A stretch of DNA of 64,000 bases from Octopus sinensis (Eukaryota). Below, piece after piece: positions 3,619 to 59,529 of this stretch; position 1 is the first letter of the stretch; the number at the start of each line of letters is the position of its first letter. The position numbers were made by a program, and so were the translations under genes. The stretch spans positions 16,554,001-16,618,000 of the forward strand of contig NC_043024.1 of the NCBI RefSeq assembly GCF_006345805.1. Direction: 5' to 3'. Below the pieces are notes generated by a model. The model made no database searches. It saw only the letters and a list, made by a program, of their open reading frames with translations, and was not told the origin of the DNA.

Positions 3619-4710
3619 CATCATCATCATCATCATTTAACGTTCATTTTCCATGCTAGCATGGGTTGGACGGTTCGACCGGGGTCTGGGAAGCCAGGGG
3701 CTGCACCAGGCTCCAGTCTGATCTGGCAGTGTTTCTACAGCTGGATGCCCTTCCTAATGCCAACCACCCCGCGAGTGTAGTGGGTCCTTTTTACGTGCCA
3801 CCGGCACAGAAGCCAGTCAAGGCAGTGCTGGCAACGGCCACGTTTGGATGGTGCTTTTGGCATCGGCCACATTCGGATGGTGCTTTTTATGTGCCACCGG
3901 GACAGAAGCCAGTCGAGGCGGAGCTGACAACGGCCACGTTCGGATGGTGCTTTTTATGTGCCACCGGCACAGGTATCACAACTACTATTTCGATTGATAT
4001 TTATTTTGGTGTTCATGTACTTGACTCAACAGGTCTCCTCAAGCACAGCGGGATGTTCTGGAATCCAGGGTACTTTGAATGGGCAGGGGCTATGCGTAAC
4101 TGGTGCAGGAAGCAGCCCGGGTCTTTACAGTCACAGCATATCTCCAGAGATCTCGGTCCTTCGCCTTTGCCTCAGTGAGGCCCAACGCTCTGAGGTCATG
4201 CTTGACTACCTCATCCCATGTCTTCCTGGGTCTACCTCTCCCCCTGATACCTTCAACTGTTTGGGAGTGGCACTTCTTCACACATCTCTCCTCATCCACC
4301 ATCGCAAGCGTCGCTCTTGCACACCACATCTGATGCTTCTTATGTCCAGCATTTCTCTCAGAGTGCTTACCCTCTGTCGTGTGCGCACACTGACATTACA
4401 CATCCAGCGGATCATGCTAGCTTCATTCCTTTCAAGCCTACGCATGTCCTCTGCAGTCACAGTCCATGTTTCACTACCGTGAAGCATGGTGGTTCGCACA
4501 TATGCGTCATACAATCTACCTTTCACTTTGAGCGAGAGACCCTTTGTCGCCAGTAGGGGTAACGATGGGCTTCTTTCAGTTTCCATCTACCAAATCCACT
4601 CACAAGGCTTTAGTTGGCCCGAGGCTGTAGAAGAAGACACTTGCCCACGGTGCCATCCAGTGGGACTGAACCCGCAACTATGTGGTTGGGAAGCAAGCTT
4701 CTTACCACAT
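3382..4710 (-). mobile_element. SINE family A split by an RTE insertion
   Basis: 3' half at 3382-3610, 5' half at 4562-4710, RTE fragment between them inside the internal microsatellite. Confidence 0.8.
3617..4560 (-). mobile_element. 5'-truncated RTE LINE (RT C-terminus and 3' UTR)
   Basis: Minus-strand translation KGRLYDAYVRTTMLHGSETW...VEGIRGRGRPRKTW; (CAT)n tail at 3618-3636. Confidence 0.92.
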
Positions 4711-15139: not shown

Positions 15140-15612
15140 AAGTGAAATCGTAGTCGTGACTGATGTTGGTGTCATGTAACTGGCACCCATGCTGGTGGCA
15201 CATGGCACCTTTTGAGCATTGGGCCTCACAGAGGCAATGTGGCTGATGCCAGTGTTTTGTAACTAGCACCCATGTGCTAGCTGGTGGCACATAAAAGGCA
15301 CCTTTTAAGCATTGGGTCTCACAGAGGGAATATGGATGATGCCAGTGTCGTATTACTAGCACCCATGCTGGTGGCACATAAAAAGCACCTTTTGAGCATT
15401 GGGCCACATGGAAACAATGGCAAATGATTGAGACCTTTGGCAATATGCTATGCTTGAGTAGAGAGACTCATTGAGCCAAGTGAAATCGTAGTTGTGGCAG
15501 ATACTGGTGTCATGCAACTGGCACCTGTGTCAGTGGCACATAAAAGCACCCATTACATTCTCGGAGTGGTTGGCATTAGGAAGGGCATCCAGCCGTAGAA
15601 ACCATACCAAAT
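15140..15612 (+). mobile_element. RTE LINE 3' UTR fragments with internal repeats
   Basis: Repeated GGTGGCACATAAAAAGCACC units followed by GGAGTGGTTGGCATTAGGAAGGGCATCCAGC. Confidence 0.8.
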
Positions 15613-18554: not shown

Positions 18555-20810
18555 ATCACTGCCGTTTAACGTCCGCTTGACAGTTTGACTGAGGGCTGGA
18601 AAGCCAGGAGGCTTTACCAGGCTCCAATCTGATCTAGCAAAGTTACTGGATGCCCTTCCTAATGTCAACCATTCTAAGAGTGTAGTGGGTGCTTTTTATG
18701 TGCCATCAGCATGAAGGCCAGTGAGGCAGTACTGGCATCAACCACACTTGAATGGTGCTTTCTACATGCCACTGGCACAGGACCAGTCAGCCAGCACTAG
18801 CATCAACTATGCTCGAATGGTGCCTTTTACATGCCATTGGCATACAAGCCAGTCAGGTGGTACTGGCAACGATCATGCTCAAATGGTGCTTTTAACATGC
18901 CACTGGTATGGGTGCCAATCAGGTGGTACTGTCATCGGCCACAACAACAATTCCACTTGCCTCAGTAGGTTTTCACATAGTTTATTGTCCAATGATTGAA
19001 GGGTACTCTTAAATGGGCTGGTCATGCTGCATTGGCATAGGCCATGGGTTATGGTCTCACTTGGCTTGCTGGGTCTTCTCAATCACAGCATATCTCCGAA
19101 GGTTTTGGTCACTTGTCATTGTCTCAGTGAGGCCCAATGTTTGAAGGTTGTGCTTCACCACCTCATCCCAAGTCTTCCTGGGACTACCTCTTCTATAGGT
19201 TCCCCCTACTGCAAGGGTGTGGCACTTTTTCACACATCCATACGCAATACATGACCATACCTATTTCTTTATTACCCACAAGGGGCTAAACATAGAGGGG
19301 ACAAACAAGGACAGACATAGGTATTAAGTTGATTACATCGACCCAGTGCGTAACTGATACTTAATTTATCGACCCCGAAAGGATGAAAAGCAAAGTCGAC
19401 CTCGGTGGAATTTGAACTCAAAACGTAACGACAGACGCAATACGGCTACGCATTTTGCCCGCCGTACTAACGTTTCTGCCAGCTCGACGCCTTGTACATG
19501 ACCATACCAGCACAGTTGTCCCTCTTGCACACCACATCTGATGCTTAAGTCCAACTTGTCTCTCAGGGCACTTATACTCTGTTGTGTATGTTTCACTGCC
19601 ATATAGCATGGCTGTTCGTACACATGTATCATACAGTCTAACTGTTACTTGAAGTGAAAGGCCCTTTGACACTAGCAGCTACACTTTCAGAGCATCCACC
19701 CTTGCTACTGACTTGGTCACCTAGGTAACGGAAGCTATCAGCTACTTCTAGTTTTTCTCCCTGGAATGTGACAAAAGCTGTTCTCTGCACATTTTCAGTG
19801 TTATTTATTGCTTCCGAGCATCTGCCACATACAAAAACTATCTTCCCAGTTAGCCTTCCTTTGACATTGCTGCACCTCTTATGTGTCCAGAGCTTACACT
19901 GGGTACATCTTATAGAGTTTCTAACTATGCCTTTTCTACAGAACAAGCAGAGCCATCTACCTGAAGGGAATTGTGATTTGTCTGCCTTCCTACTTATTAA
20001 GACTTTGGTTTTAGCTAGATTGACTGTAAGGCCCTTCGATTCTAGCTCTTGCTTCCACACCTGAAACTTCTCTAGTTTTGATAGTGACTCACCTATTAGA
20101 GCAAGGTTGTCAGCATAGAGAATCTCCCAGGGACATCCTGTGTTGAATTCCTCTGTTATTGCTTGGAGGACTATGATGAATAAGATGGGGCTGAGGACTG
20201 AACCTTGGTGGACCCCTACCTCTACCCGGAATTCTTCACTGTACTTGTTGCCAACCCTCACCTTACTGACAGCATCCCAGTACATGGCTAGTACAGCTCT
20301 CACTAACCATTCATCTATTCCTAGTTTTTGCTTCTTCTACCAGATAAGGGATTGGGAGACCCTGTCAAAGGCTTTCTCCATGTCAAAGAAAGCTAGGTAC
20401 AGAGGTTTATCTTTGGCTGGGTATTTCTCCTGCAGCGATCTTACCAGAAATATAGCATCAGTGATGCTTTTACCTGACACAAACCCAAACTGCATCTCGT
20501 CTAGACTTACTCTCTCCCTAATTAGTTGGGCTATGACCCTCTCTGTGACTTTCATTACCTGATCCAATAACTTGATACCTCTCTAATTGTATCTAATGCA
20601 TTACCTTTACCTTTCTAGCAGTTGACTATTATGCTGCTATACCAGTCATTGTGTATGACTCCTTCATGTATCACCTGACTAGACTATTGCCAACATCACC
20701 AGATATCTTAAGCATCCCTGCAGTGATTCCTGATGGGCCGGGAGCTTTCCCCGTCTTCATACTCTTAATTGCGTTATCTACCAAGGTACTGTCAATTTGG
20801 ATAGCTTAGA
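18555..20810 (-). mobile_element. degenerate 5'-truncated RTE LINE (RT with PHD-like insert), interrupted by SINE B
   Basis: QFGF..GKSITDAIF, DMEKAFDRV, GVHQGSVLSPILF, YADNL, FRYLG motifs with stops and frameshifts; 3' UTR at about 18555-19120. Confidence 0.92.
19262..19494 (-). mobile_element. SINE family B (tail type 1) with 14-bp TSD
   Basis: TSD TACATGACCATACC at 19248-19261 and 19495-19508. Confidence 0.92.
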
Positions 20811-23445: not shown

Positions 23446-24799
23446 TATATATATTGTATGGAACCATGTGGTTTGGAAGCGAGATTTTTACCACTCAGCC
23501 AAACCACATGGTTCCAGGTTCAGTCCCACTTTTTTTCAATATCTATTTTGGCTTGCAATATCTGGTTCTTTTAGCCAAACTATCGTAACTCCAGCTGCTT
23601 CATTCCAAGATATAAAAAATTGTCAACNNNNNNNNNNNNNNNNNNNNNNNNNNNNNNNNNNNNNNNNNNNNNNNNNNNNNNNNNNNNNNNNNNNNNNNNN
23701 NNNNNNNNNNNNNNNNNNNNNNNNNNNTCTCTCGAAACATTTTTATTAACACTTTCTCTCACTGAATATGTGTGTCCGTGTGTCCATCAGTGTGTGTGTG
23801 CATGCATATCTGTAAGGAATTTCATTAGGGCGACAGAGTGATTTAAAACCATATGTAAATGCTAATTTATTTTAATAGCATCTTTTTCTGTTAGTAAATA
23901 TGTTTTTCCTTACACACACACACACGGACTTGCTCTCTGCAAGGTGATGAATCAAAAATTTAAATTACAAAGCTTTTTGCAGTTGTTTACATACAAGCAA
24001 TGGATCACCACATAATCATTCCAGAAAATATGTTTATGGGGAGAAAAATATTGAAAATGTTAGTGTGTGACAAGAAAGGTAACAGGTGGCCATGGGATGT
24101 GCTAGAAATAACAGCTTTAAATCACATACCTTTTTGCCTGAAAATTATTTTGAAATTATAAACAGCAACACATTGCAGATTTGGACTGCCATATTTTTAA
24201 ACTAAGAGGAAAAAACAAATTTGGGAAAAAAGCCAAAATTGTAGGATTTATGGAAGGGCAGCATTAATGATAAAATTAAAGATTTCACTATTGTTTTTGA
24301 ATTTCATTTTCTGTTTGAAAATATAGAAAGTAGGGATTGTTACAATGATTGCCATTTCCAAATGTTTTTCTTTTTTTAAAACTTTCGAGGTTTCTCTCAT
24401 CATTTTTAAGTGCATATTGCAAAAAAAAAAAGAAAAGACCAAAATTGGTACTCAGTGGGGGAAGGGGCTTGAAAAATATTCATAAATTTTCAAAAACATT
24501 TCTTATTTTTACTGAAATGGATTTCCCATAGTGCAAAAATAAAGAATAAAAAATGGACAAAATTGGTCCAGAAGTGGGAGATAGAATTCATAAATTACTG
24601 ATAACATTGGAATTCATAAATTTTCAAAATGCCTTTTCATAAAAAGCATTCCCTGCATCATTTGCAAAAGTGTTGTGGAAAAATATTTTGAAAAATCCCT
24701 GTCAAAATGGAGAAAATCCAATTTGAGTGTGGTATTCCAAAAATGGGACAAGGCATTCAATTGTGAAAATTATCCAGCAAGAAAGGGATACTCAGCTAT
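21468..24799 (+). mobile_element. possible non-autonomous Helitron remnant(s), heavily interrupted
   Basis: 5' end A|TCTATAATATAAA..GTCTGTGTG at 21468; 3'-like end CCAGCAAGAAAGGGATACTCAGCTA near 24775-24799; spans SINEs and the gap, so the two ends may belong to different copies. Confidence 0.35.
23628..23727. other. assembly gap (100 N)
   Basis: Run of exactly 100 N, typical of a placeholder of unknown true size. Confidence 1.
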
Positions 24800-29105: not shown

Positions 29106-29911
29106 TGGATACGAATGCAGTTCCTGCCTCACCCCTGTTCGTGCTGCAATTAATTAATAGGTACTTTGTTAATCTCACACCCTTGATAATCTTGATTTGT
29201 TTGTGTGTTTTGATATTTATTGAATTTTAAATAATTTTGTTTTATTTTCAGTAATATTCCATCCTAACTAATTAGCTGTTACTTTCTTAATGAACAAATA
29301 ATTTATAAAAGGCAATAATGCATGCGTGTATGTGTGTTTGTGTGTGTGAGTGCATGTGTGTGTGCGTGTGTTATCTAATCATAAATTCCTATCCACACAC
29401 ACTTATATGTGTGTATGTAAATATTTATATGTATACATGTATGTGTATTTGTGTATATATATATATATAGTGTGTGTGTGTGTGTGCATATGAGTGTGTA
29501 TGTGTGTACAGAAATGACTTTGTAGTTGGTAATTTTGCCCCCCAATTCCATGGCTTGATTTCAGTCTCACCTTGGGCAGGTGTCTTCTACAACCCCAGGC
29601 CAGCCAAAATCTTGTGAGTGATTTTGGTGAACAGAAACTCATTTTCTGTGATCTTTCTTCTTCTTCTTCTTCTTCTTCTTCTTCTTCTTCTCCGCTTCCC
29701 CCTCCTCCTCCTCACTGCACAAAGCTCTCAATACAACACTCATCTTACATTGCACTCTCTTGCTTAGTCTTTACTCTTCTGTCTCCTCTTCCCTACACAT
29801 TCTGTCACTCCTCATCTCTTTCAATTTTCCTGCTTTCACATTCCTTTATGGTTTGGTGTAATGCAGTTTGTACTCTCCTATGAGGTTTTTCATATGTTCA
29901 TCTCTTTAATT

Positions 29912-30001
29912 CATCATCATCATCATCATCAATAGACTCTTGGTTTCGTTTCTACAGTTGGACACCCTTCTTAACACCAACAACTTCAGAGTGTATTCGT
30001 T
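29912..30001 (-). mobile_element. RTE 3'-end remnant directly abutting the satellite
   Basis: (CAT)n tail, then GTTTCTACAGTTGGACACCCTTCTTAACACCAAC..GAGTGTA, matching GTTTCTACAGCTGGATGCCCTTCCTAATGCCAAC..GAGTGTA at about 3730. Confidence 0.8.
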
Positions 30002-33000
30002 GCTTTTTATGTGACACCATCACAAGTGCCTCTTTACATGGCGCCATCACCAGTGCATTTTATGTGGCACCAACACCATTGCTTTTTATGTGACACCATC
30101 ACCAGTGCCTTTTTATGTGGCACCATCACAAGTGCCTATTTACATGGTGCCATCACCAGTGCATTTTATGTGGCACCAACACCATTGCTTTTTATGTGAC
30201 ACCATCACCAGTGCCTTTTTATGTGGCACCATCACAAGTGCCTCTTTACATGGTGCCATCACCAGTGCATTTTATGTGGCACCAACACCATTGCTTTTTA
30301 TGTGACACCATCACCAGTGCCTTTTTATGTGGCACCATCACAAGTGCCTCTTTACATGGCGCCATCACCAGTGCATTTTATGTGGCACCACACCATTGCT
30401 TTTTATGTGACACCATCACCAGTGCCTTTTATGTGGCACCATCACAAGTGCCTCTTTACATGGTGCCATCACCAGTGCATTTTATGTGGCACCAACAACA
30501 CCATTGCTTTTATGTGACACCATCACCAGTGCCTTTTATGTGGCACCATCACAAGTGCCTATTTACATGGTGCCATCACCAGTGCATTTTATGTGGCACC
30601 AACACCATTGCTTTTTATGTGACACCATCACCAGTGCCTTTTTATGTGACACCATCACAAGTGCCTCTTTACATGGTGCCATCACCAGTGCATTTTATGT
30701 GGCACCAACACATTGCTTTTTATGTGACACCATCACCAGTGCCTTTTTATGTGGCACCATCACAAGTGCTCTTACCATGGTGCCATCACCAGTGCATTTT
30801 ATGTGGCACCAACACCATTGCTTTTATGTGACACCATCACCAGTGCCTTTTTATGTGGCACCATCACAAGTGCCTCTTTACATGGTGCCATCACCAGTGC
30901 ATTTTATGTGGCACCAACACCATTGCTTTTTATGTGACACCATCACCAGTGTGCTTTTTATGTGGCACCATCACAAGTGCCTCTTTACATGGTGCCATCA
31001 CCAGTGCATTTATGTGGCACCAACACCATTGCTTTTTATGTGACACCATCACCAGTGCCTTTTATGTGGCACCATCACAAGTGCCTATTTACATGGTGCC
31101 ATCACCAGTGCATTTTATGTGGCACCAACACCATGCTTTTTATGTGAACCATCACCAGTGCTTTTTATGTGACACCATCACAAGTGCCTCTTTACATGGC
31201 GCCATCACCAGTGCATTTTATGTGGCACCATCACCAGTGCCTTTTTATGTGGCACCATCACAAGTGCCTCTTTACATGGCGCCATCACCAGTGCATTTTA
31301 TGTGGCACCAACACCATTGCTTTTTATTGTGACACCATCACCAGTGCCTTTTATATGTGGCACCATCACAAGTGCCTCTTTACATGCGCCCCATCACCAG
31401 TGCATTTTATGTGGCACCAACACCATGCTTTTTATGTGACACCATCACCAGTGCCTTTTTATGTGGCACCATCACAAGTGCCTATTTACATGGTGCCATC
31501 ACCTGTGCATTTTATGTGGCACCAACACCAGTGCTTTTTATGTGACACCATCACCAGTGCCTTTTTATGTGTGGCACCATCACAAGTGCCTCTTTACATG
31601 GTGCCATCACCAGTGCATTTTATGTGGCACCAACACCAGTGCTTTTTATGTGACACCATCACCAGTGCCTTTTTATGTGGTGCCATCACAAGTGCCTCTT
31701 TACATGGTGCCATCACCAGTGCATTTTATGTGGCACCAACACCATTGCTTTTTATGTGACACCATCACCAGTGCCTTTTTATGTGGCACCATCACAAGTG
31801 CCTCTTTACATGGTGCCATCACCAGTGCATTTTATGTGGCACCAACACCATTGCTTTTTATGTGACACCATCACCAGTGCCTCTTTACATGGCGCCATCA
31901 CCAGTGCATTTTATGTGGGACCAACACCATTGCTTTTTATGTGACACCAACACCATTGCTTTTTATGTGACACCATCACCAGTGCCTTTTTATGTGGCAC
32001 CATCACAAGTGCCTCTTTACATGGCGCCATCACCAGTGCATTTTATGTGGCACCAACACCATTGCTTTTTATGTGACACCATCACCAGTGCCTTTTTATG
32101 TGGCACCATCACAAGTGCCTCTTTACATGGTGCCATCACCAGTGCATTTTATGTGGCACCAACACCATGCTTTTTATGTGACCCATCACCAGTGCCTTTT
32201 TATGTGGCACCATCACAAGTGCCTATTTACATGGTGCCATCACCAGTGCATTTTATGTGGCACCAACACCATGCTTTTTATGTGACACCATCACCAGTGC
32301 CTTTTTATGTGACACCATCACAAGTGCCTCTTTACATGGCGCCATCACCAGTGCATTTTATGTGGCACCATCACCAGTGCCTTTTTGTGGCACCATCACA
32401 AGTGCCTCTTTACATGGCGCCATCACCAGTGCATTTTATGTGGCACCAACACCATTGCTTTTTATGTGACACCATCACCAGTGCCTTTTATGTGGCACCA
32501 TCACAAGTGCCTCTTTACATGGCGCCATCACCAGTGCATTTTATGTGGCACCAACACCATGCTTTTTATGTGACACCATCACCAGTGCCTTTTATGTGGC
32601 ACCATCACAAGTGCCTATTTACATGGTGCCATCACCTGTGCATTTTATGTGGCACCAACACCAGTGCTTTTTATGTGACACCATCACCAGTGCTTTTTAT
32701 GTGGCACCATCACAAGTGCCTCTTTACATGGTGCCATCACCAGTGCATTTTATGTGGCACCAACACCAGTGCTTTTTATGTGACACCATCACCAGTGCCT
32801 TTTTATGTGGTGCCATCACAAGTGCCTCTTTACATGGTGCCATCACCAGTGCATTTTATGTGGCACCAACACCATTGTTTATGTGACACCATCACCAGTG
32901 CCTTTTTATGTGGCACCATCACAAGTGCCTCTTTACATGGTGCCATCACCAGTGCATTTTATGTGGCACCAACACCATTGCTTTTATGTGACACCATCAC

Positions 33001-36000
33001 CAGTGCCTCTTTACATGGCGCCATCACCAGGCATTTTATGTGGGACCAACACCATTGCTTTTTATGTGACACCAACACCATTGCTTTTATTATGTGACAC
33101 CATCACCAGTGCTTTTTATGTGGCACCATCACAAGTGCCTCTTTACATGGCGCCATCCAGTGCATTTTATGTGGCACCAACACCATTGCTTTTATGTGAC
33201 ACCATCACCAGTGCTTTTTATGTGGCACCATCACAAGTGCCTCTTTACATGGTGCCATCACCAGTGCATTTTATGTGGCACCAACACCATTGCTTTTTAT
33301 GTGACACCATCACCAGTGCCTTTTTATGTGGCACCATCACAAGTGCCTATTTACATGGTGCCATCACCAGTGCATTTTATGTGGCACCAACACCATGCTT
33401 TTTATGTGACACCATCACCAGTGCCTTTTTATGTGACACCATCACAGTGCCTCTTTACATGGCGCCATCACCAGTGCATTTTATGTGGCACCAACACCAT
33501 TGCTTTTTATGTGACACCATCACCAGTGCCTTTTTATGTGGCACCATCACAAGTGCCTCTTTACATGGTGCCATCACCAGTGCATTTATGTGGCACCAAC
33601 ACCATTGCTTTTTATGTGAGACCATCACCAGTGCCTTTTTATGTGGCACCATCACAAGTGCCTCTTTACATGGTGCCATCACCAGTGCATTTTATGTGGC
33701 ACCAACACCATTGCTTTTATGTGACACCATCACCAGTGCCTTTTTATGTGGCACCATCACAAGTGCCTCTTACATGGTGCCATCACCAGTGCATTTTATG
33801 TGGCACCAACACCATTGCTTTTTATGTGACACCATCACCAGTGCCTTTTTATGTGGCACCATCACAAGTGCCTATTTACATGGTGCCATCACCAGTGCAT
33901 TTTATGTGGCACCAACACCATTGCTTTTTATGTGACACCATCACCAGTGCCTTTTTATGTGACACCATCACAAGTGCCTCTTTACATGGCGCCATCACCA
34001 GTGCATTTTATGTGGCACCATCACCAGTGCCTTTTTATGTGGCACCATCACAAGTGCCTCTTTACATGGCGCCATCACCAGTGCATTTTATGTGGCACCA
34101 ACACCATTGCTTTTTATGTGACACCATCACCAGTGCCTTTTTATGTGGCACCATCACAAGTGCCTATTTACATGGTGCCATCACCTGTGCATTTTATGTG
34201 GCACCAACACCAGTGCTTTTTATGTGACACCATCACCAGTGCCTTTTTATGTGGCACCATCACAAGTGCCTCTTTACATGGTGCCATCACCAGTGCATTT
34301 TATGTGGCACCAACACCAGTGCTTTTTATGTGACACCATCACCAGTGCCTTTTTATGTGGCACCATCACAAGTGCCTCTTTACATGGTGCCATCACCAGT
34401 GCATTTTATGTGGCACCAACACCATTGCTTTTTATGTGACACCATCACCAGTGCCTTTTTATGTGGCACCATCACAAGTGCCTCTTTACATGGTGCCATC
34501 ACCAGTGCATTTTATGTGGCACCAACACCATTGCTTTTTATGTGACACCATCACCAGTGCCTTTTTATGTGGCACCATCACAAGTGCCTCTTTACATGGT
34601 GCCATCACCAGTGCATTTTATGTGGCCACCAACACCATTGCTTTTTATGTGACACCATCACCAGTGCCTTTTTATGTGGCACCATCACAAGTGCCTCTTT
34701 ACATGGTGCCATCACCAGTGCATTTTATGTGGCACCAACACCATTGCTTTTTATGTGACACCATCACCAGTGCCTTTTATGTGGCCACCATCACAAGTGC
34801 CTATTACATGGTGCCATCACCAGTGCATTTTATGTGGCACCAACACCAGTGCTTTTTATGTGACACCATCACCAGTGCCTTTTTATGTGGCACCATCACA
34901 AGTGCCTCTTTACATGGTGCCATCACCAGTGCATTTTATGTGGCACCAACACCAGTGCTTTTTATGTGACACCATCACCAGTGCCTTTTTATGTGACACC
35001 ATCACAAGTGCCTCTTTACATGGCGCCATCACCAGTGCATTTTATGTGGCACCAACACCAGTGCTTTTTATGTGACACCATCACCAGTGCCTTTTTATGT
35101 GACACCATCACAAGTGCCTCTTTACATGGCGCCATCACCAGTGCATTTTATGTGGCACCAACACCAGTGCTTTTTATGTGACACCATCACCAGTGCCTTT
35201 TTATGTGACACCATCATCAGTGCCTTTTTATGTGGCACCATCACAAGTGCCTCTTTACATGGTGCCATCACCAGTGCATTTTATGTGGCACCAACACCAT
35301 TGCTTTTTATGTGACACCATCACCAGTGCCTTTTTATGTGGCACCATCACAAGTGCCTATTTACATGGTGCCATCACCAGTGCATTTTATGTGGCACCAA
35401 CACCATTGCTTTTTATGTGACACCATCACCAGTGCCTTTTTATGTGACACCATCACAAGTGCCTCTTTACATGGTGCCATCACCAGTGCATTTTATGTGT
35501 CACAAACACCATTGCTTTTATGTGACACCATCACCAGTGCCTTTTTATGTGACACCATCACAAGTGCCTCTTTACATGGCGCCATCACCAGTGCATTTTA
35601 TGTGGCACCAACACCATTGCTTTTTATGTGACACCATCACCAGTGCCTTTTTATGTGACACCATCACAAGTGCCTCTTTACATGGCGCCATCACCAGTGC
35701 ATTTTATGTGGCACCAACACCATTGCTTTTTATGTGACACCATCATCAGTGCCTTTTTATGTGGCACCATCACAAGTGCCTCTTTACATGGCGCCATCAC
35801 CAGTGCATTTTATGTGGCACCAACACCATTGCTTTTATGTGACACCATCACCAGTGCCTTTTTATGTGACACCATCACAAGTGCCCTTTACATGGCGCCA
35901 TCACAGTGCATTTTATGTGGCACCAACACCATTGCTTTTTATGTGACACCATCATCAGTGCCTTTTTATGTGGCACCATCACAAGTGCCTCTTTACATGG

Positions 36001-38460
36001 CGCATCACCAGTGCATTTATGTGGCACCAACAACATTGCTTTTTATGTGACACCATCATCAGTGCCTTTTATGTGGCACCATCACAAGTGCCTCTTTACA
36101 TGGCGCCATCACCAGTGCATTTTATGTGGCACCAACACCAGTGCTTTTTATGTGACACCATCACCAGTGCCTTTTTATGTGACACCATCATCAGTGCCTT
36201 TTTATGTGGCACCATCACAAGTGCCTCTTTACATGGTGCCATCACCTGTGCATTTTATGTGGCACCAACACCATTGCTTTTTATGTGACACCATCACCAG
36301 TGCCTTTTTATGTGACACCATCACAAGTGCCTCTTTACATGGCGCCATCACCAGTGCATTTTATGTGGCACCAACACCATTGCTTTTTATGTGACACCAT
36401 CACCAGTGCCTTTTTATGTGACACCATCACAAGTGCCTCTTTACATGGTGCCATCACCAGTGCATTTTATGTGTCACCAACACCATTGCTTTTTATGTGA
36501 CACCATCACCAGTGCCTTTTTATGTGACACCATCACAAGTGCCTCTTTACATGGCGCCATCACCAGTGCATTTTATGTGGCACCAACACCATTGCTTTTT
36601 ATGTGACACCATCACCAGTGCCTTTTTATGTGACACCATCACAAGTGCCTCTTTACATGGCGCCATCACCAGTGCATTTTATGTGGCACCAACACCATTG
36701 CTTTTTATGTGACACCATCATCAGTGCCTTTTTATGTGGCACCATCACAAGTGCCTCTTTACATGGCGCCATCACCAGTGCATTTTATGTGGCACCAACA
36801 CCATTGCTTTTTATGTGACACCATCACCAGTGCCTTTTTATGTGACACCATCACAAGTGCCTCTTTACATGGCGCCATCACCAGTGCATTTTATGTGGCA
36901 CCAACACCATTGCTTTTTATGTGACACCATCACCAGTGCCTTTTTATGTGACACCATCATCAGTGCCTTTTTATGTGACACCATCACAAGTGCCTCTTTA
37001 CATGGCGCCATCACCAGTGCATTTTATGTGGCACCAACACCATTGCTTTTTATGTGACACCATCACCAGTGCCTTTTATATGTGACACCATCATCAGTGC
37101 CTTTTATGTGACCATCACAAGTGCCTCTTTACATGGCCCTCACCAGTGCATTTTATGTGGCACCAACACCATTGCTTTTTATGTGACACCATCATCAGTG
37201 CCTTTTTATGTGGCACCATCACAAGTGCCTCTTTACATGGCGCCATCACCAGTGCATTTTATGTGGCACCAACACCATTGCTTTTATGTGACACCATCAT
37301 CAGTGCCTTTTTATGTGACACCATCACAAGTGCTTTTTATGTGACCCATCACAAGTGCCTCTTTACATGGCGCCATCACCAGTGTGATTTTATGTGGCAC
37401 CAACACCATTGCTTTTTATGTGACACCATCATCAGTGCCTTTTTATGTGACACCATCATCAGTGCCTTTTATGTGACACCATCACAAGTGCCTCTTTACA
37501 TGGCGCCATCACCAGTGCATTTTATGTGGCACAAAACACATTGCTTTTTATGTGACACCATCACCAGTGCCTTTTTATGTGACACCATCATCAGTGCCTT
37601 TTTATGTGACACCATCACAAGTGCCTCTTTACATGGCGCCATCACCAGTGCATTTTATGTGGCACCAACACCATTGCTTTTTATGTGACACCATCACCAG
37701 TGCCTTTTTAGTGACACCATCACAAGTGCCTCTTTACATGGCGCCATCACCAGTGCATTTTATGTGGCACCAACACCATTGCTTTTTATGTGACACCATC
37801 ACCAGTGCCTTTTTATGTGACACCATCATCAGTGCCTTTTTATGTGGCACCATCACAAGTGCCTCTTTACATGGCGCCATCACCAGTGCATTTTATGTGG
37901 CACCAACACCATTGCTTTTTATGTGACACCATCACCCATGCCTTTTTATGTGACACCATCACAAGTGCCTCTTTACATGGCGCCATCACCAGTGCATTTT
38001 ATGTGGCACCAACACCATTGCTTTTTATGTGACACCATCACCCATGCCTTTTTATGTGGCACCATCACAAGTGCCTATTTACATGGCGCCATCACCAGTG
38101 CAATTTATGTGGCACCAACACCATTGCTTTTTATGTGACACCAACACCAGTGCTTTTTATGTGACACCATCACCAGTGCCTTTTTATGTGGCACCATCAC
38201 AAGTGCCTCTTTACATGGTGCCATCACCTGTGCATTTTATGTGGCACCAACACCATTGCTTTTTATGTGACACCATCACCAGTGCCTTTTTATGTGGCAC
38301 CATCACAAGTGCCTCTTTACATGGTGCCATCACCTGTGCATTTTATGTGGCACCAACACCATTGCTTTTTATGTGACACCATCACCAGTGCCTTTTTATG
38401 TGGCACCATCATCAGTGCCTTTTTATGTGGCACCATCACAAGTGCCTCTTTACATGGTGT
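30002..38460. repeat. tandem satellite, 106-bp higher-order unit of four 26-27 bp monomers, about 80 units
   Basis: Unit = GCTTTTTATGTGACACCATCACCAGT + GCCTTTTTATGTGGCACCATCACAAGT + GCCTCTTTACATGGYGCCATCACCAGT + GCATTTTATGTGGCACCAACACCATT (26+27+27+26); 106-nt offsets are visible in the ORF track. Confidence 0.98.
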
Positions 38461-38622
38461 CTTTGATTCCTATAATATACTTTCCACGTGGTTTGTGTAT
38501 TTGTTGTCTTATGTTTAATGCCTGATGTATTTGCAGCATTATTCTATGCCTTGATCTGCCAGTTCATTAATATTTCACTTATAATTCATGTCTCTTTTTC
38601 TTCTGCGGATTTCTTTATCCAG

Positions 38623-38712
38623 TGCTTTGCTTGTGGAGGAGAATCTAAACGTTCCATGGAGAGGGATTTTACCACTGATATGTTATATTCTGTGGACACT
38701 CACTGTCTCTAT
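38623..38712 (+). CDS. candidate 90-bp internal exon of an unidentified gene
   Basis: Pyrimidine tract plus TTTATCCAG acceptor, GTAAGT donor, length divisible by 3, unique sequence; open as CFACGGESKRSMERDFTTDMLYSVDTHCLY or ALLVEENLNVPWRGILPLICYILWTLTVS. Confidence 0.35.
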
Positions 38713-39194
38713 GTAAGTACATGCATTATCTATGTTTTTATTGTTTTCTAACTGAATATTTTACCCCTGAAAATGGAGTCATTGTATTGCTATGAGTTCA
38801 GGTCTTCCTTTGATTTCTCAACAATTTACCCTGGATATATGGATGATATACTTGTCATAAAGGATTCACTGAAAGACATTAACAAACAAGAAAATCATTA
38901 ACAGCACACTCCTCTGTCAGTAACCACTATATCAGCTGGTTGTCACAATGAAGTAATCATACAAACCGCTGGAAACAGTAGCCAAATCAACCTCTCATCT
39001 TAATAGCAATAACATATTGGGCAATGTAGACCAAAGGAGATTATAATTAAAAAAAAAAAGAAAACAAAAAAGTACAGATATGATGGTCGTGGTTGAAATG
39101 TTTCTGATCAAAGCAGGCCAAGGGCTAAACTACAACAACAACAATAGGAACAACTTGACAGGAATAACACACTTGTGTCAACACCAATAAAAAT

Positions 39195-39518
39195 CACATC
39201 ACCATCATTTAACATCCGTTTTTCCATGCTGGCATGGGTTGGACAGCTTGACAGAAGCTGGCAAGGCCAAGCATCACACCAGGTTCCATAGCTTTTTTTG
39301 GCTTGGTTTCTATGGCCTGGTGCCCTTCCTAATACTGACCACTTCACAGAGTGTATTGGGTGATTTTCACATGTCACTGGCATGGGTGCCTTTCACATGT
39401 CACTCGTGTGGCTCCCTTTTACATATCACCGGTATGAATGCCTTTATGTGTTATTAACATGGGTAATTCTTATGTGTCGCTGGCATGGGTGCCTTTTATG
39501 TGTCACCAGCATGGGCGC
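39195..39518 (-). mobile_element. RTE 3'-end fragment with a short diverged 26-27 bp tandem array
   Basis: CATCATTTAACATCCGTTTTTCCATGCTGGCATGGG end, then about six units like GTGCCTTTTATGTGTCACCAGCATGG. Confidence 0.75.
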
Positions 39519-40607: not shown

Positions 40608-40761
40608 CTAATATACATACCAGTTACAACAACAGATACACACCTGTCACAATACAAATACACACTTATCACAGTAACAGACATATCTGCCACAGCAATA
40701 TATATACACACACACCTGTCTCAGTAATATACACATTCCTGTCACAACAATATACATGTCT

Positions 40762-40982
40762 AAGGCAGTGAACTGGCAGAAATGTTAGCACGCCAGGTGA
40801 AATACTTAGCGGTATTTTGTCTGTCTTTATGTGCTGAATTCAAATTCCGCTGAGGTCGACTTTGCCTTTCATCCTTTCAGGGTTGATAAATTAAGTACCA
40901 GTTGCTTACTGGGGTCGATCTAATCTACTGTCTCCCCCCTCCCCCAAAATTTTGTGCCTTGTGCCTAAAGTGGAAAAGGATA
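40762..40982 (+). mobile_element. SINE family B (tail type 2)
   Basis: Same head and core as other B copies; tail CCCCCTCCCCCAAAATTTTGTGCCTTGTGCCTAAAGTGGAAAAGG. Confidence 0.88.
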
Positions 40983-43469
40983 ATATACATACCCGTTAGA
41001 ACAACAGATACACACCTATCACAGCAACAGACACATCTGTCACAACAATACACACACAGACCTGTCATAATAATATACACATTCTTGTCACAGCAATATA
41101 CATACCTGTCAAAATACACACACCTATCACAGCAGACACACTTGTGACAACCAGCTACATCCTGTCACAACAACAGATATTCTTGTCACAATAATATACA
41201 TACTAGTCACAACACTCATACAAATACATCTGTCACAATACACACACACACACACACTCTTGTCACAGCAACAAATACACCTGTCACATATCTGTCACAG
41301 TTATATAAACTTGTTTTTTATGCTGAGGTCGACTGTGCCTTTCACACTTTCGAGGCTGATGAAATAAGTACCAGTTATGCATTGGGGTTGATATAATTGA
41401 CAATCCCCTCCCCAAATTTTCAGGCCTTCTACCTACAGTAGAAACAAGTATATACACCTGTTTTAAAAACATTCACACCTGTCATAATTACAACAAAAGG
41501 TACAGCTGTCACAACAAGGACATGAGTCACGATACACATGCATACACCTCACAACAGCCCAACACCTTATAGAATCACAATTGCAAAGTGTCTTAATGAA
41601 TAACAAGGGTCATGTGCATTTAATAAAATTGCATTTGGTGCTGGGAAACAACCGTCACAACAACAACAACAACAATATATGCCTGAGCCAGAAACAAGAG
41701 CAATGCATGCTTGTTGCAGTGACTGCATTTGCTGTCACAAGAACATTGTCACAACAAAGGCACATAACTGTACGTGCAACAACGCTAAGCAACTATTATA
41801 ACCACACATGCACAGAAGTGTGTGTGTGTGTGTGTGCGCGTGCACGTGTCTGTTTCAGTTACAACATCAGCCAATTGTTACACCACCACCACCAACACAC
41901 AACACTATAGTGATACACACTTGTCATAGTGATACCATTTATTGTCAGTGACAGTCACAGTAGCAGCAACAACAACAACAACATAGCAACTGTTGCTACA
42001 ACAACACACACATCCCCGTCTGTAACAACATCAATTACAACAACAACAACAGCTACACATTGCTGCTGTCAGTAACAATATCAGCTGATTGTCTGAATGA
42101 TGTAGCTGCTTGACTTGCTAGAAATAGAAGTTAAACCTCCATTGCTGTCTGAGAGAAAATAAAAAAGAAAATAGAATATAAATGTAATAATCCTGTACAT
42201 GCTGTGTTTGAGAAAATATAGGATGGTTATGGATGGATTGTCTTTGATCATGCTTCTGTTCAAGCAGTGTTGCCTGTACATGGAACCATCTCAACACCCT
42301 ACCTGTCACTGCAACAGCTGATGAGTAAACCACTATGTGAGCTCTTGATCTATTAGAAATAATAGTTAAATTTTCCTCAGATCACACTCTGATAGCTTTC
42401 ATAAGGGAAGGAGACCTTGGAGAAAGTAGGCCTATGCATACAAAATGACAGGATGGTCATGGCTGGAATTTCTTTTCTCATGGGTCTGTTCAAGCAAATT
42501 TGCCTGGGGTTAAACAGCAGCAGCAACATCAACAACAACAATGGCTGAGCTGGCCGCAGCAGAGCCTGGAGGACTGCTATAGGTTGAGGTGATGGTGTTC
42601 AGGTGTTTGGCTACGGTGGTGACCAGAATGGGGTGCGAAGAGGGTGATGGGTGGAGATTTGTTGCATTTTCTATGGTAGACACACCTGTGACATCATCCT
42701 TATGACATCATACCTTGCCTCTCTCTCTATACCCACACACACGCACACACACACACACATACGCACACACATATATATATGTATGTATCACTCTTTCTCT
42801 TTCATTTGAAATACATATAAACTCATGCACACGTACACACACACGCACACACACACCACATGCAAGTTGATAATGATATACTCTCATAATTTATATGAAT
42901 ATATTATGTGTATAAACCATTGCCATTATCATCATCATCATCATTTTTATGGTCGCTTTTCCACACAGCCATGGGTTGGAGAGGACTTTCTGAGGTAATT
43001 TTATGGATGGATGCCCTTTCTGATGTCAACCATTTTAGTTCCCCTTACAACATACCGGAATATGACGTACGTATTCTAAGAACTGAGATATGTACAGAAG
43101 TACCGTAATATACGTATGTGTGTGCGTGCGTGTATTTGTGTAGATACATATATATTCTTATGTGTGCATATATATGTATGTATGTATATATATGTATGTA
43201 TGAATAAATATGTATATGTGTGTATGTATGTGTGTGTGTATGCATATAAATATATTCTTATGTGTATATATATAATATATATGTATATACATATGTATAT
43301 ATATATATGTATGTATGAATATATGTGCATGTGTGTGTATATATTTATGTGTATGTGTCTGAAATGGGTACAATGAACTTGCCATGTATGTATATATGTT
43401 TGTATATATGTATGCATATATGCATGTATGTATGTATGTATGTACATACGTATAAATGTTAAAGTGAAT

Positions 43470-56994: not shown

Positions 56995-58894
56995 AATCAT
57001 CATCATCATCATCGTTTAACGTCCGTTCTCCATGCTAGCATGGGTTGGACAGTTCAACCAGGGATCTGGGAAGTCAGAAGGCTGCACCAGGCTCCAGTCT
57101 TATCTGGCAATGTTTCTACAGCTTGATGCCCTTCCTAACGCCAACCACTCCGTGAGTGTAGTGGGTGCTTTTTACGTGCCACCCGCACAGGTGCCAGGCG
57201 AGGCTGGCAACAGCCACGGTTGGATTGGTGCATTTTACATGCCACCGGCACGGAAGCCAGTCGAGGCGGTGCTGGCATCGGCCACGATTCGGATAGTGCT
57301 TTTTACGTATCTCCAGTCCAGGGGTCCTGGCATCTGCCGGGTGCCAGTCATAGGATTGGTTCAATTTCGATTTCACTTGCCCCAACAGGTCTTCGCAAGC
57401 AAAGGTGCCTGTCGTCGGATGAGGTTCGATATTGACTTCGTTTGCCTCAACAGGTCTTTGTGTGTCCAAGGGAGGAAAGGCATGCATAAGTGGGCTGGGC
57501 TCACTTGTCCTGCCTGGTCTTCTCACGTACAGCATATTTCCAAAGGTCTCGGTCGCTGGTCATTTCCTCAGTGAGGCCTAAAGTTCGAAGGTCGTGCTTC
57601 ACCACCTCGTCCCAGGTTTTCCTGGGTCTACCTCTTCCACGGGTTCCCTAGGGATTGGCACTTTTTCACACACCTATCTTCATCCATTCTCGCCACATGA
57701 CCATACCAGCACAATCGTCTTTCTTGCACACCACAACTGATGTTTCTTAGGTACAACATTTCTCTCAAGGTGCTAACGCTCTGTCGAGTATGTACCCTGA
57801 CATTACACATCCATCGGAGCTTACTGGCTTCATTCCTCGCGAGCTTACGCATGTCCTCAGCAGTCACAGTCCATGTTTCACTGCCATGTAGCATGGCTGT
57901 TCGTACACATGCATCATACAATCTGCCTTTTACTCTGAGCGAGAGGCCTTTAGTCACCAGCAGAGGTAAGAGCTCCCTAAACTTTGCCCAGGCTATTCTT
58001 ACTCTAGCAGTTACACTTTCAACGCACCCACCCCCACTACTAACTTGGTCACCTAGATAACGGAAGCTATCAACTACTTCTAGTTTTTCCCCCTGGAAAG
58101 TGACGGAAGTTGTTTTCTGCAGATTTTCAGAGGTTAATGCTCCCGAGCATCTGCCACATACAAAAACTATCTTCCCAGTTAGCCTTCTTTTGACATTGCT
58201 GCACCTCTTATGTGTCCATAGCTTACACTTGGTACATCTTATAGAGTTTCTACCTACACCTTTTCTACAGATCGAGCAGGGCCATCTTCCTGAAGACATT
58301 TGTGGATTGTCTACCTTTCTACTTATTAGTACTTTGGTTTTAGCTAAGTTGACTCTAAGGGCCCTCGATTCTAAACCCTCCTTCCACACCTGGAACTTCT
58401 CCTCCAGTTCTGATAGTGACTCAGCAATTAGAGCAAGGTCGTCAGCATAGAGGAGCTCCCAGGGGCAACCTGTCTTGAATTCCTCCGTAATTGCCTGGAG
58501 GACTATGATAAATAGGAGGGGGCTGAGTACTGAACCCTGGTGGACCCCAACCTCTACTTTGAATTCTTCTGTGTACATGTTGCCAACCCTAACCTTACTT
58601 ACGGCATCCCTGTACATGGCTTGCACAACCCTCACCAGCCATTCATCTATCCCTAGTTTCCTCATTGACCACCAGATAAGGGATCGGGGGACCCTGTCAA
58701 AGGCTTTCTCCATGTCAACGAAAGCCAGGTACAGGGGCTTATCTTTGGCTAGATATTTCTCCTGCAGCTGCCTTACCAGGAATATAGCATCAGTGGTACT
58801 TTTCCCTGGCACAAACCCAAACTGCATCTCATCTAAACTAACTTTCTCTCTAATTAGTTGGGCTATGACCCCCTCCGTAACCTTCATTACCTGA
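56995..58894 (-). mobile_element. 5'-truncated RTE LINE with a long open RT frame
   Basis: ORF 57628-58923: QFGFVPGKSTTDAIF, FVDMEKAFDRV, GVHQGSVLSPLLF, LYADDL, FRYLG, MLHGSETW; frameshift near 57650; 3' UTR and (CAT)n tail; TA-rich flanks on both sides. Confidence 0.96.
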
Positions 58895-58929
58895 TATGTG
58901 TATATATGTATATATGTATACATATGTAA

Positions 58930-58993
<64 letters not shown>

Positions 58994-59529
58994 GCATGTT
59001 CGGGTACTATTGTAATAATGATAGTAATATAGTGATGATGATGGGGATGGTAGCAGGTAATATGGTGGAATGGTGGGGATGTAGTGCGGTGGTGGTGGTG
59101 GTGGTGATCATAGTGGTGGTGGCAGCAGCGATGACCGTGGTTGTTGTGGTGGTGGTGGTGTGCTAACTATGCTGCTGCAGTGATGGTGATGGTAGTATAG
59201 AACCTCTCCTCCCCCCACCCACCTCTACTGGTTAAATGTGTTACCTTTGCCAGTTTTACTCTCAGTCAGCCCTTGATTCAACAAACCTAAAATCAAAGGT
59301 GTTCCAGCCACGACTATCCTATTTTTTTCCAGACATAATATAACTATGATTACATTATATAATGCGTACTTCCTTTTAAGATGATTGAGTGTGGGGTCTG
59401 AAGGAGATTTAGCTACTATTTCTTGCAGTCTGAGTTTCCACATAGGGTATGATGATTAACCATTTTAGCCTGGCATGTCGAAACTTTTAGTTAGTTTTAT
59501 AACCTTGTTATTGGGTGAAAGCCAGGAAT

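Follow-up and report, generated by a model that had tools for sequence, protein, structure and literature searches.

A higher-order array of a 26-bp unit in Octopus sinensis and its likely origin in the 3′ UTR repeat of an older RTE-like LINE subfamily

Results

Structure of the locus

The analysed stretch of Octopus sinensis DNA (64,000 nucleotides of contig NC_043024.1, hereafter the window) was found to contain a long tandem array joined on one side to the 3′ end of a LINE, along with separate copies of two related LINE subfamilies. The following features were recognised.

29903..29912, plus strand: left copy of a weak candidate 10-bp target-site duplication, 9 of 10 letters equal to 38460-38469
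29912..29931, minus strand: simple-repeat LINE 3′ tail of six CAT triplets, the LINE reading on the minus strand
29932..30000, minus strand: remnant of the LINE 3′ UTR head, log-odds +18.5, leaning to the older 26-bp subfamily
30001..38459, no strand assigned: tandem array with a four-unit 106-bp higher-order repeat (HOR), from period counts, monomer typing and a 28-base motif found at this locus only
38460..38469, plus strand: right copy of the candidate duplication, where the unique flank begins, at a junction common to runs of other organisms
39200..39515, minus strand: short copy apart from the array, whose head is of the older type and whose 26-bp units, about six in number and degenerate, belong to another variant; given as context and not as parent
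56997..59166, minus strand: younger RTE-like copy with a 63-bp UTR unit and a reverse-transcriptase frame, of the sister family and not the parent
near 3619-4586 and 18555-20561: further younger sister-family copies like that at 56997..59166, not the parent

The array at 30001-38459 was found to contain about 320 units of 26-27 bp (a 27-bp period repeated 320 times), organised by the four-unit HOR (a 106-bp period repeated 80 times). Segmentation gave 318 units, comprising 90 of type D, 76 of type A, 76 of type B and 72 of type C, with 4 left unresolved. The order D-A-B-C was found 69 times and the canonical steps made up 92%. The types were 3-6 positions apart over 26-27 positions and copies of the same type differed by 1.8-3.7%, so that the array shows what defines a HOR, monomers that differ from one another recurring in blocks that are far more alike. 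Traces of a super-period of 12-14 HORs were present in the left half, and the variant composition shifted from left to right. The 28-base motif, spanning the A/B junction, gave 56 matches in the assembly, all 56 within the array, and the four-unit HOR is specific to this locus. An indel was found in 61 of 314 monomers, homopolymer indels being frequent and assembly errors visible; the length of about 8.5 kb is a figure from this one assembly with its visible indel errors.

The array starts directly behind the tail and the head remnant, which agrees with the first-pass annotation, in which an array of four monomers had been placed at a LINE 3′ remnant. About 80 bp of the LINE 3′ end were found to be deleted between tail and head, a gap that the first-pass annotation had not recorded. 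The absence of an RTE body after 38460, claimed in the same annotation, was borne out by scores of 21 and 20-21 against null maxima of 30 and 29-34. The candidate target-site duplication was equalled or bettered in 68 and 44 of 5000 random pairings (p about 0.01), no convincing duplication was found at 17 other arrays, and a match of more than 10 bp was found in only 2 of 44 young LINE copies, duplication not being typical of the family. As the duplication is weak, truncation may have taken place at insertion or by a later, old deletion.

Stop-free frames of up to 445 codons were found to span the array on the plus strand. A coding role was rejected because a period of 106 bp is not divisible by three and no such frames occur on the element strand. 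A possible exon at about 38620-38715 was rejected as well, its conservation being no higher than that of the flanks in contigs of other organisms. Folding as a driver was not favoured, the HOR giving z-scores of -1.2 to -1.6 as DNA or RNA with no support for a special structure; among 11 folds, the two exceptions were the L044 array folded as RNA (-2.9) and one young UTR folded as DNA (-2.0).

Class of the host LINE

In the younger sister family, a 1043-aa ORF at locus L101 was found to contain Exo_endo_phos and RVT_1 domains, in accordance with RTE elements, for which one ORF encoding both an AP endonuclease and a reverse transcriptase is described (PMC2887409). Many frames like this ORF were present in the genome. 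The ORF of this family contained a PHD-like finger, and the atlas matches to its protein were RVT_1 and PHD clusters, most commonly from Mollusca. The short simple-repeat 3′ end of RTE type was present as a triplet tail in the window and in the fetched copies, and the same CAT-type tail terminated the ORF-bearing copies at 3619 and 56997. The putative RTE label rests on the ORF layout, the tail and a C-terminal motif typical of RTE. The 3′ UTR, at about 0.4-1 kb with internal repeats, was not of the very short RTE kind. RTE-2_OV is likewise reported with a 3′ UTR of about 600 nt (PMC9115989), so the long UTR lowers the RTE claim only a little.

Arrays of the 26-bp unit in the genome

The array in the window is not a lone event, being one of at least 32 long arrays of the 26-bp unit, of 1-11 kb each, the count being a lower bound. 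The closed arrays spanned 0.1-10.9 kb in the assembly, none being longer than 10.9 kb, and four long arrays were located on unplaced contigs. By unit and length the arrays are on the scale of minisatellites and do not reach the hundreds of kilobases of classical heterochromatic satellites. At most 32 of the 2436 distinct 40-mers of the array at 30001-38459 were in common with any other array, and the other arrays contained their own periods of 1, 2, 3 or 5 units. The long arrays of the first set were distally placed, but 4 of 14 later arrays were found mid-chromosome on C8 and distal placement is not claimed.

Of the 29 arrays found by array sequence alone, 20 adjoined the LINE head (about 2% expected by chance) and 2 more had element sequence only at their far end, so that 22 of 29 were joined to the element on one side or both. 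Neither flank was clearly of element origin in the other 7, two of them borderline. The earlier expectation that other arrays would be anchored on the RTE tail therefore held for most of them. Element sequence was kept on both sides of five expanded arrays of more than 1.3 kb, namely L044/94 (8.3 kb), L038/39 (10.9 kb), L172 (5.7 kb), L171 (2.8 kb) and L168 (1.35 kb).

The 7 arrays without clear element flanks would be accounted for if a pre-existing satellite had been captured into the LINE 3′ UTR, the long arrays being satellite remnants with LINE ends placed in or beside them. Such a capture is very unlikely, since the junction lies at the same place and in the same orientation in the 20 loci with an adjoining head, a core of about 21 letters links the 26-bp-unit and 63-66-bp-unit families at the same spot in the UTR, and the headless arrays are no more diverged from the native units (closeness of 0.808 against 0.812 for the anchored arrays, in a rough test). 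The head was also present at 12 of 13 short unit runs among 58 stretches sampled at round positions. The very first unit may have been captured in the deep past.

Older and younger subfamilies

The older sister subfamily was found to contain 1-10 copies of the 26-bp unit about 150 bp from the tail, whereas the younger RTE-like subfamily contained a UTR unit of 63-66 bp. The unique UTR body was used to fetch 30 loci. A head that could be scored, with 2-10 units after it, was preserved in 16 of them, and degraded reverse-transcriptase frames followed in 4 of the 30 (L050, L054, L058 and L059). No intact element of the older family was found; only fragments of its reverse transcriptase and C-terminus were recovered, with an identity of about 50% to the younger family.

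The monomers matched the 16 older copies with medians of 22, 21, 20 and 19 letters against 19, 17.5, 18.5 and 16 for 20 younger copies. At the last positions of the unit, agreement with the older copies was seen about 8 times in 10, whereas at two of these positions fewer than 1 in 10 younger copies agreed. The head log-odds were at least 26.9 in 29 older-type heads and at most -30.5 in 20 younger-type heads, and the window head (+18.5) scored below every older-type head. Overall this head was equidistant from the two subfamilies (0.654 and 0.656), only the diagnostic columns favouring the older one; head identity within the family was 0.76 for the older and 0.86 for the younger. On these comparisons the array units and the flanking head appear to fit the older 26-bp subfamily better than the younger one. 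Besides the array, one copy alone in the window had a 26-bp period, the short one at 39200-39515, and its unit resembled the array no more than did the 63-bp copies.

The three copies cited in the first-pass annotation as carriers of the motif were found to exist and to contain the core 3-4 times, but at a spacing of 63-66 bp and in the younger subfamily. When the monomers were compared with these copies against 300 shuffles by two-letter blocks, D, C and A matched 18-21 letters (shuffle maxima 16-18) and B fell short with 15-16 (maxima 17-18). The proposed origin in the internal repeat of an RTE-like LINE 3′ UTR is thus supported by three of the four monomers and by the mostly tail-anchored arrays. 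The picture of a source, an intermediate and a mature array lying together in the window is not supported, since the 26-bp unit is native to the older subfamily, and the 63-66-bp copies were given up as parent because the array units and head fit that subfamily better.

A direct origin from the younger subfamily's 63-66-bp repeat, through loss of the spacer between the cores, draws on the shared core, on the three monomers that beat the shuffles and on the overall head identity, which does not separate the families. It is largely refuted and hardly probable, as the unit is native to the other, more diverged family and both its last positions and the head log-odds favour that family.

Age of the array

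The right junction of the array was found to be common to runs of five other organisms. In organism E, three runs crossed it into a plain 26-bp unit, with 19 substitutions in 425 bp of flank, and the contigs of organisms C and D passed through the last B-type unit into the flank. Only 10 singleton substitutions were found in 8287 bp of the array. The shared junction together with the few singleton substitutions makes it likely that amplification took place long after insertion.

The number of units varied among short copies, so that some change of length in copying is likely. It is nevertheless extremely improbable that the long arrays were made during reverse transcription or were inherited long from a master element, like a retrotransposing VNTR, since every long array contains its own variants and period and the array in the window is far more homogeneous than its insertion age allows. 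An assembly artefact, in which a shorter or much longer array was rendered as 8.5 kb with part of its HOR pattern spurious, is also extremely unlikely: homopolymer indels are frequent, three bases are missing in the flank, and the 10.9-kb maximum with the four unplaced arrays could reflect a ceiling of read length, but the shared variants recur in ordered super-periods and gradients, unlike random error, and the contigs of organisms C and D cross the array end.

Discussion

The reading preferred here, at a probability of roughly 85%, is that the array consists of the 26-bp 3′ UTR unit of an older RTE-like LINE subfamily, likely expanded in place long after insertion, in a copy probably already cut short within the repeats. 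The copy would have been inserted by target-primed reverse transcription that began at the tail and was truncated at the 5′ end, which would explain the survival of the tail side and the frequent absence of the body. Unequal exchange, conversion or slippage may then have multiplied four already diverged units as one block, and groups of 12-14 HORs would have been duplicated after the HOR amplification. No function is indicated for the array, which most likely is a minisatellite-type locus that evolves neutrally and varies in length. No RNA datasets were among the matches listed for the locus, which has no bearing on expression.

Satellites from 3′ UTR tandem repeats of Ogre LTR-retrotransposons are described in Lathyrus sativus and pea (PMC7004042), PisTR-A being the pea case in this class (PMC9659126). 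As described there, short arrays lie in the 3′ UTR of a dispersed retrotransposon, some are expanded, all stages of length occur and HORs are present in the long ones (PMC7004042). The LINE described here likewise contained short arrays native to a dispersed 3′ UTR and expanded arrays still joined to the element. The host here is a non-LTR LINE and not a Tat/Ogre LTR element (PMC7004042), so that the arrays are anchored mostly on the tail side; the case works like the Ogre ones without being one of them. The LINE-borne arrays also stay at 1-11 kb in the assembly and are dispersed. For the Ogre satellites, expansion is reported to be concentrated in pericentromeric regions (PMC7004042).

In Lepidoptera, RTE-generated microsatellite families are described in which mostly 5′-truncated 3′ ends likewise spread a tandem repeat to many loci, the repeat being the simple one with which a very short UTR ends (PMC2887409). 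The octopus LINE repeat is instead an internal 26-bp unit of a 0.4-1 kb UTR and grows to kilobases with HORs. Other LINE or SINE cases compiled in PMC9659126 include the cetacean common satellite from the L1 3′ end, chicken HinfI from CR1, Drosophila 18HT from HeT-A/TART, mouse Ms6-hm/Hm-2 from MaLR and the hexamer repeat from B1. Retroelement sequence is the array source in these as well, and the mouse cases are dispersed seeds that expanded; the LINE cases are given there as similarity to a LINE segment and not as repeated independent expansion of an internal VNTR, and no RTE or cephalopod was found among the entries of its table covered here. The central repeats of Helitrons and Helentrons of oyster and Drosophila are similar in that short arrays inside a mobile element are dispersed with it and in some cases expand, and are known in molluscs, whereas these are rolling-circle DNA elements and not LINEs (PMC10048060, PMC12628747). 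RTE-2_OV of Octopus vulgaris is a single-ORF RTE-clade LINE with long UTRs like the present one; its published description gives an ORF of 1109 aa, a C2H2 finger and a 3′ UTR of microsatellite type, and on that description alone it is set apart from the LINE with the 1043-aa ORF and PHD-like finger (PMC9115989).

The route from a transposon-internal repeat to a satellite is already established and the principle is not new; the array is a new animal example of the known route from a retrotransposon 3′ UTR repeat, and no published report of this LINE and 26-bp-repeat family was found in a literature search. The value lies in replication: a single seed sequence is present at numerous loci, it has expanded separately at least 32 times, and periods of 2, 3, 4 and 5 units have each arisen on their own, with close relatives sharing at least the insertion at this locus. 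It can therefore be tested whether position, recombination or chance picks the seeds that expand, and when a higher-order period takes over, both of which are left open by the Lathyrus study (PMC7004042). The array loci are likely to act as hypervariable markers and to cause breaks in assemblies. It is possible, though doubtful, that this one LINE subfamily seeded tens of thousands of near-identical starter repeats, dozens to hundreds of which expanded independently with differing higher-order periods, small chromosomes being favoured. If true, this would be a replicated natural experiment on the sites of array growth and the beginnings of HORs, datable against close relatives.

Extent and internal order of the main array

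The tandem array reported in the first-pass annotation was found to be real, and Tandem Repeats Finder recovered two periods in it, one of 27 bp in 320 copies and one of 106 bp in 80 copies with 92% matches. The window corresponds to G000:C28:16554001-16618000, and the features were located in it as follows.

30001-38459: main tandem array
About 3619, minus strand: younger RTE-like copy, leading into a reverse-transcriptase frame
About 18555, minus strand: younger RTE-like copy, leading into a reverse-transcriptase frame
About 56997, minus strand: younger RTE-like copy, leading into a reverse-transcriptase frame

Splitting of the main array gave 318 segments of four types, which contained the order D-A-B-C 69 times and followed this canonical order in 92% of steps. 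The types differed from each other at 3-6 positions and copies of the same type were 1.8-3.7% apart. Shared variants in the left half returned every 12-14 or so higher-order repeats (HORs) of four units, and the variants changed gradually from left to right. Only 10 singleton substitutions were found in 8287 bp, and 61 of 314 monomers contained an indel, many of these indels probably being consensus errors. The A/B-junction motif had 56 matches in the assembly, all 56 within the main array. The main array contained 2436 distinct 40-mers, of which no other array had more than 32. The left edge was preceded by the triplet tail and a remnant of the head (the 3′ UTR part adjoining the units), between which about 80 bp were gone relative to other copies. 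Folding gave no special signal for the array, and nothing pointed to a coding role. Elsewhere, the window contained degenerate tandem repeats of 21-23 bp without relation to the main array (40613-41267) and an assembly gap of 100 bases (23628-23727).

The parental subfamily

The general idea of the first-pass annotation, that a repeat in an RTE LINE 3′ UTR gave rise to a satellite, was right; the parent was found to be another subfamily than the one named, and the array to be one of many. A left-junction search of the assembly recovered further loci that share the tail and the 26-bp units, and four of these lead into a common UTR body. Search by the UTR body alone, in which the best 40 of 1717 candidates were scored and 30 loci taken, yielded copies with 68-79% identity to the query. 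A head that could be scored, with 2-10 units behind it, was present in 16 of these 30 loci; others had a single unit or a lost head, and four reached broken reverse-transcriptase frames with about 50% identity to the younger family. The array monomers matched the native older units at a median of 22, 21, 20 and 19 letters, versus 19, 17.5, 18.5 and 16 for the younger cores. The head profile assigned all 29 older and all 20 younger heads correctly (leave-one-out) and placed the window head on the older side (+18.5), yet lower than each of the 29 older heads; plain head identity gave no separation of the subfamilies for the window head (0.654, 0.656).

The core common to the array and the younger window copies was spaced at 63-66 bp in those copies, whose reverse-transcriptase frame contained an RVT_1 match and a sub-threshold PHD match; a PHD-like finger was present downstream of the reverse transcriptase in the younger family. 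Mollusca was the most frequent taxon among the nearest Atlas clusters, in keeping with a likely octopus host. The best 108 of 84,316 candidates had 95-100% identity, with 1043-codon frames in many, and one of them contained endonuclease and reverse transcriptase within a single ORF, the RTE layout according to PMC2887409. The element is accordingly termed RTE-like, a label based on this agreement in ORF layout rather than on a reference-element tree. The younger family, noted at window 57628-59166 and genome-wide, was likely active in the recent past, since its 1043-codon frames include many without interruption, at 96-97% identity. An intact younger copy (L101) contained a 162-bp tandem of at least five copies upstream of the ORF (1-801) and a 159-bp tandem within the 3′ UTR (4160-4613), and a 93-bp tandem was present at window 15169-15405, which suggests that the UTRs of the family undergo repeated duplication.

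Short and long arrays in the genome

An unselected sample (58 stretches at round positions, 579,900 bases) contained at least two tandem units at six loci, with a maximum of four units, and the head was present at 12 of 13 unit runs; the reversed control contained zero unit runs. Scaled from this sample, the short native runs number roughly 28,000 genome-wide, with a wide margin of about 10,000-60,000. The same sample contained a second type of tandem array from the older element (L146, G000:C22 near 10.00 Mb), with about nine 162-bp units over about 1.5 kb, each comprising two of the 26-bp units together with ORF-side UTR and a portion of the head.

Searches with the array interior only (best 40 of 506 and best 27 of 1468 candidates scored) gave 31 new array places among the matches listed, all of which were retrieved; two, in which the array passed the end of the retrieved stretch on the tail side, were excluded. 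Among the 29 kept, the head adjoined the array in 20 (one partial), with a chance adjacency of about 2%, in two further arrays element sequence was confined to the far side, and seven, two of them borderline, had no clear element sequence. Similarity to native units was 0.808 in headless and 0.812 in anchored arrays. With the first set included, the matches listed contained at least 32 arrays above 1 kb and at least 15 above 5 kb, the longest closed one being 10.9 kb. Element sequence flanked both sides of L044/94 (8.3 kb), L038/39 (10.9 kb), L172, L171 and L168, and expansion therefore took place within the element. The dominant period was four units in the main array, two in L084/85, three in L087, five in L082, L089 and L172, and one in most.

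In the first set, the 11 smallest chromosomes, with 12.4% of the placed DNA, contained 6 of the 13 placed arrays above 1 kb (p 0.003), compared with 0 of 38 body-selected short copies; the test was chosen after that set had been inspected. The later set gave 4 of 14 (p 0.085). Location of long arrays on small chromosomes is thus a post hoc lead and not a result. Four arrays of 3-8 kb were located mid-chromosome on G000:C8 (40.9, 70.8, 76.2 and 76.7 Mb) and might indicate a region that is centromeric or low in recombination.

Age of the junction and of the array

Right-flank words were found in 20 of the 22 listed runs, and eight runs were compared in detail; run X1, possibly the source from which the assembly was made, is not independent. 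In organisms C and D, contigs crossed the last unit into the right flank; in A and B they ended at 38457 and in F at 38466, a stop to be expected at a repeat. For organism E, three runs with 19 substitutions and 4 gaps against the window over 425 bp extended beyond the junction, where they contained a plain 26-bp unit, so the insertion and right boundary predate the split from E. The homogeneity of the main array points to amplification much later than insertion, or to continuing turnover. A candidate target-site duplication of 10 bp, with 9 letters in agreement, was equalled or bettered in 68 and 44 of 5000 random pairings; it fits truncation inside the repeats and is only a hint, since none was found at 17 other arrays or in most of 44 young copies.

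In window 38575-38690 all eight compared runs had one base more than the assembly at three separate places, so the assembly likely loses bases there. Two versions of window 38528-38750 were present within X1 (12 positions different in 226 bp), many letters of the second being found also in run X7, which bears another organism label.

Proposed origin

Native short UTR arrays, tail-side anchoring, two-sided cases, a locus-specific HOR and an old junction were observed, and the steps joining them draw on what is established for LINEs and tandem repeats. Reverse transcription would have started at the tail and ended in 5′ truncation, and the array may later have grown by unequal exchange, conversion or slippage. 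A four-unit block, its units already diverged, would then have been amplified, followed by duplication of larger blocks.

The literature covered yielded no report on the 26-bp/RTE-like family and none on cephalopod arrays derived from LINEs; cephalopod SINE and LINE papers under subscription, Repbase/Dfam and genome-paper supplements, which lay outside this scope, may already list the element or unit. Related literature includes PMC9115989 (RTE-2_OV, Octopus vulgaris) and PMC4758252. The principle that an element-internal repeat becomes a satellite is not new, being described for Ogre (PMC7004042), Helitron (PMC10048060, PMC12628747) and mouse retroelement (PMC9659126) cases. The main array is one of many such arrays, and the value lies more in the genome-wide replicated system than in the single locus.
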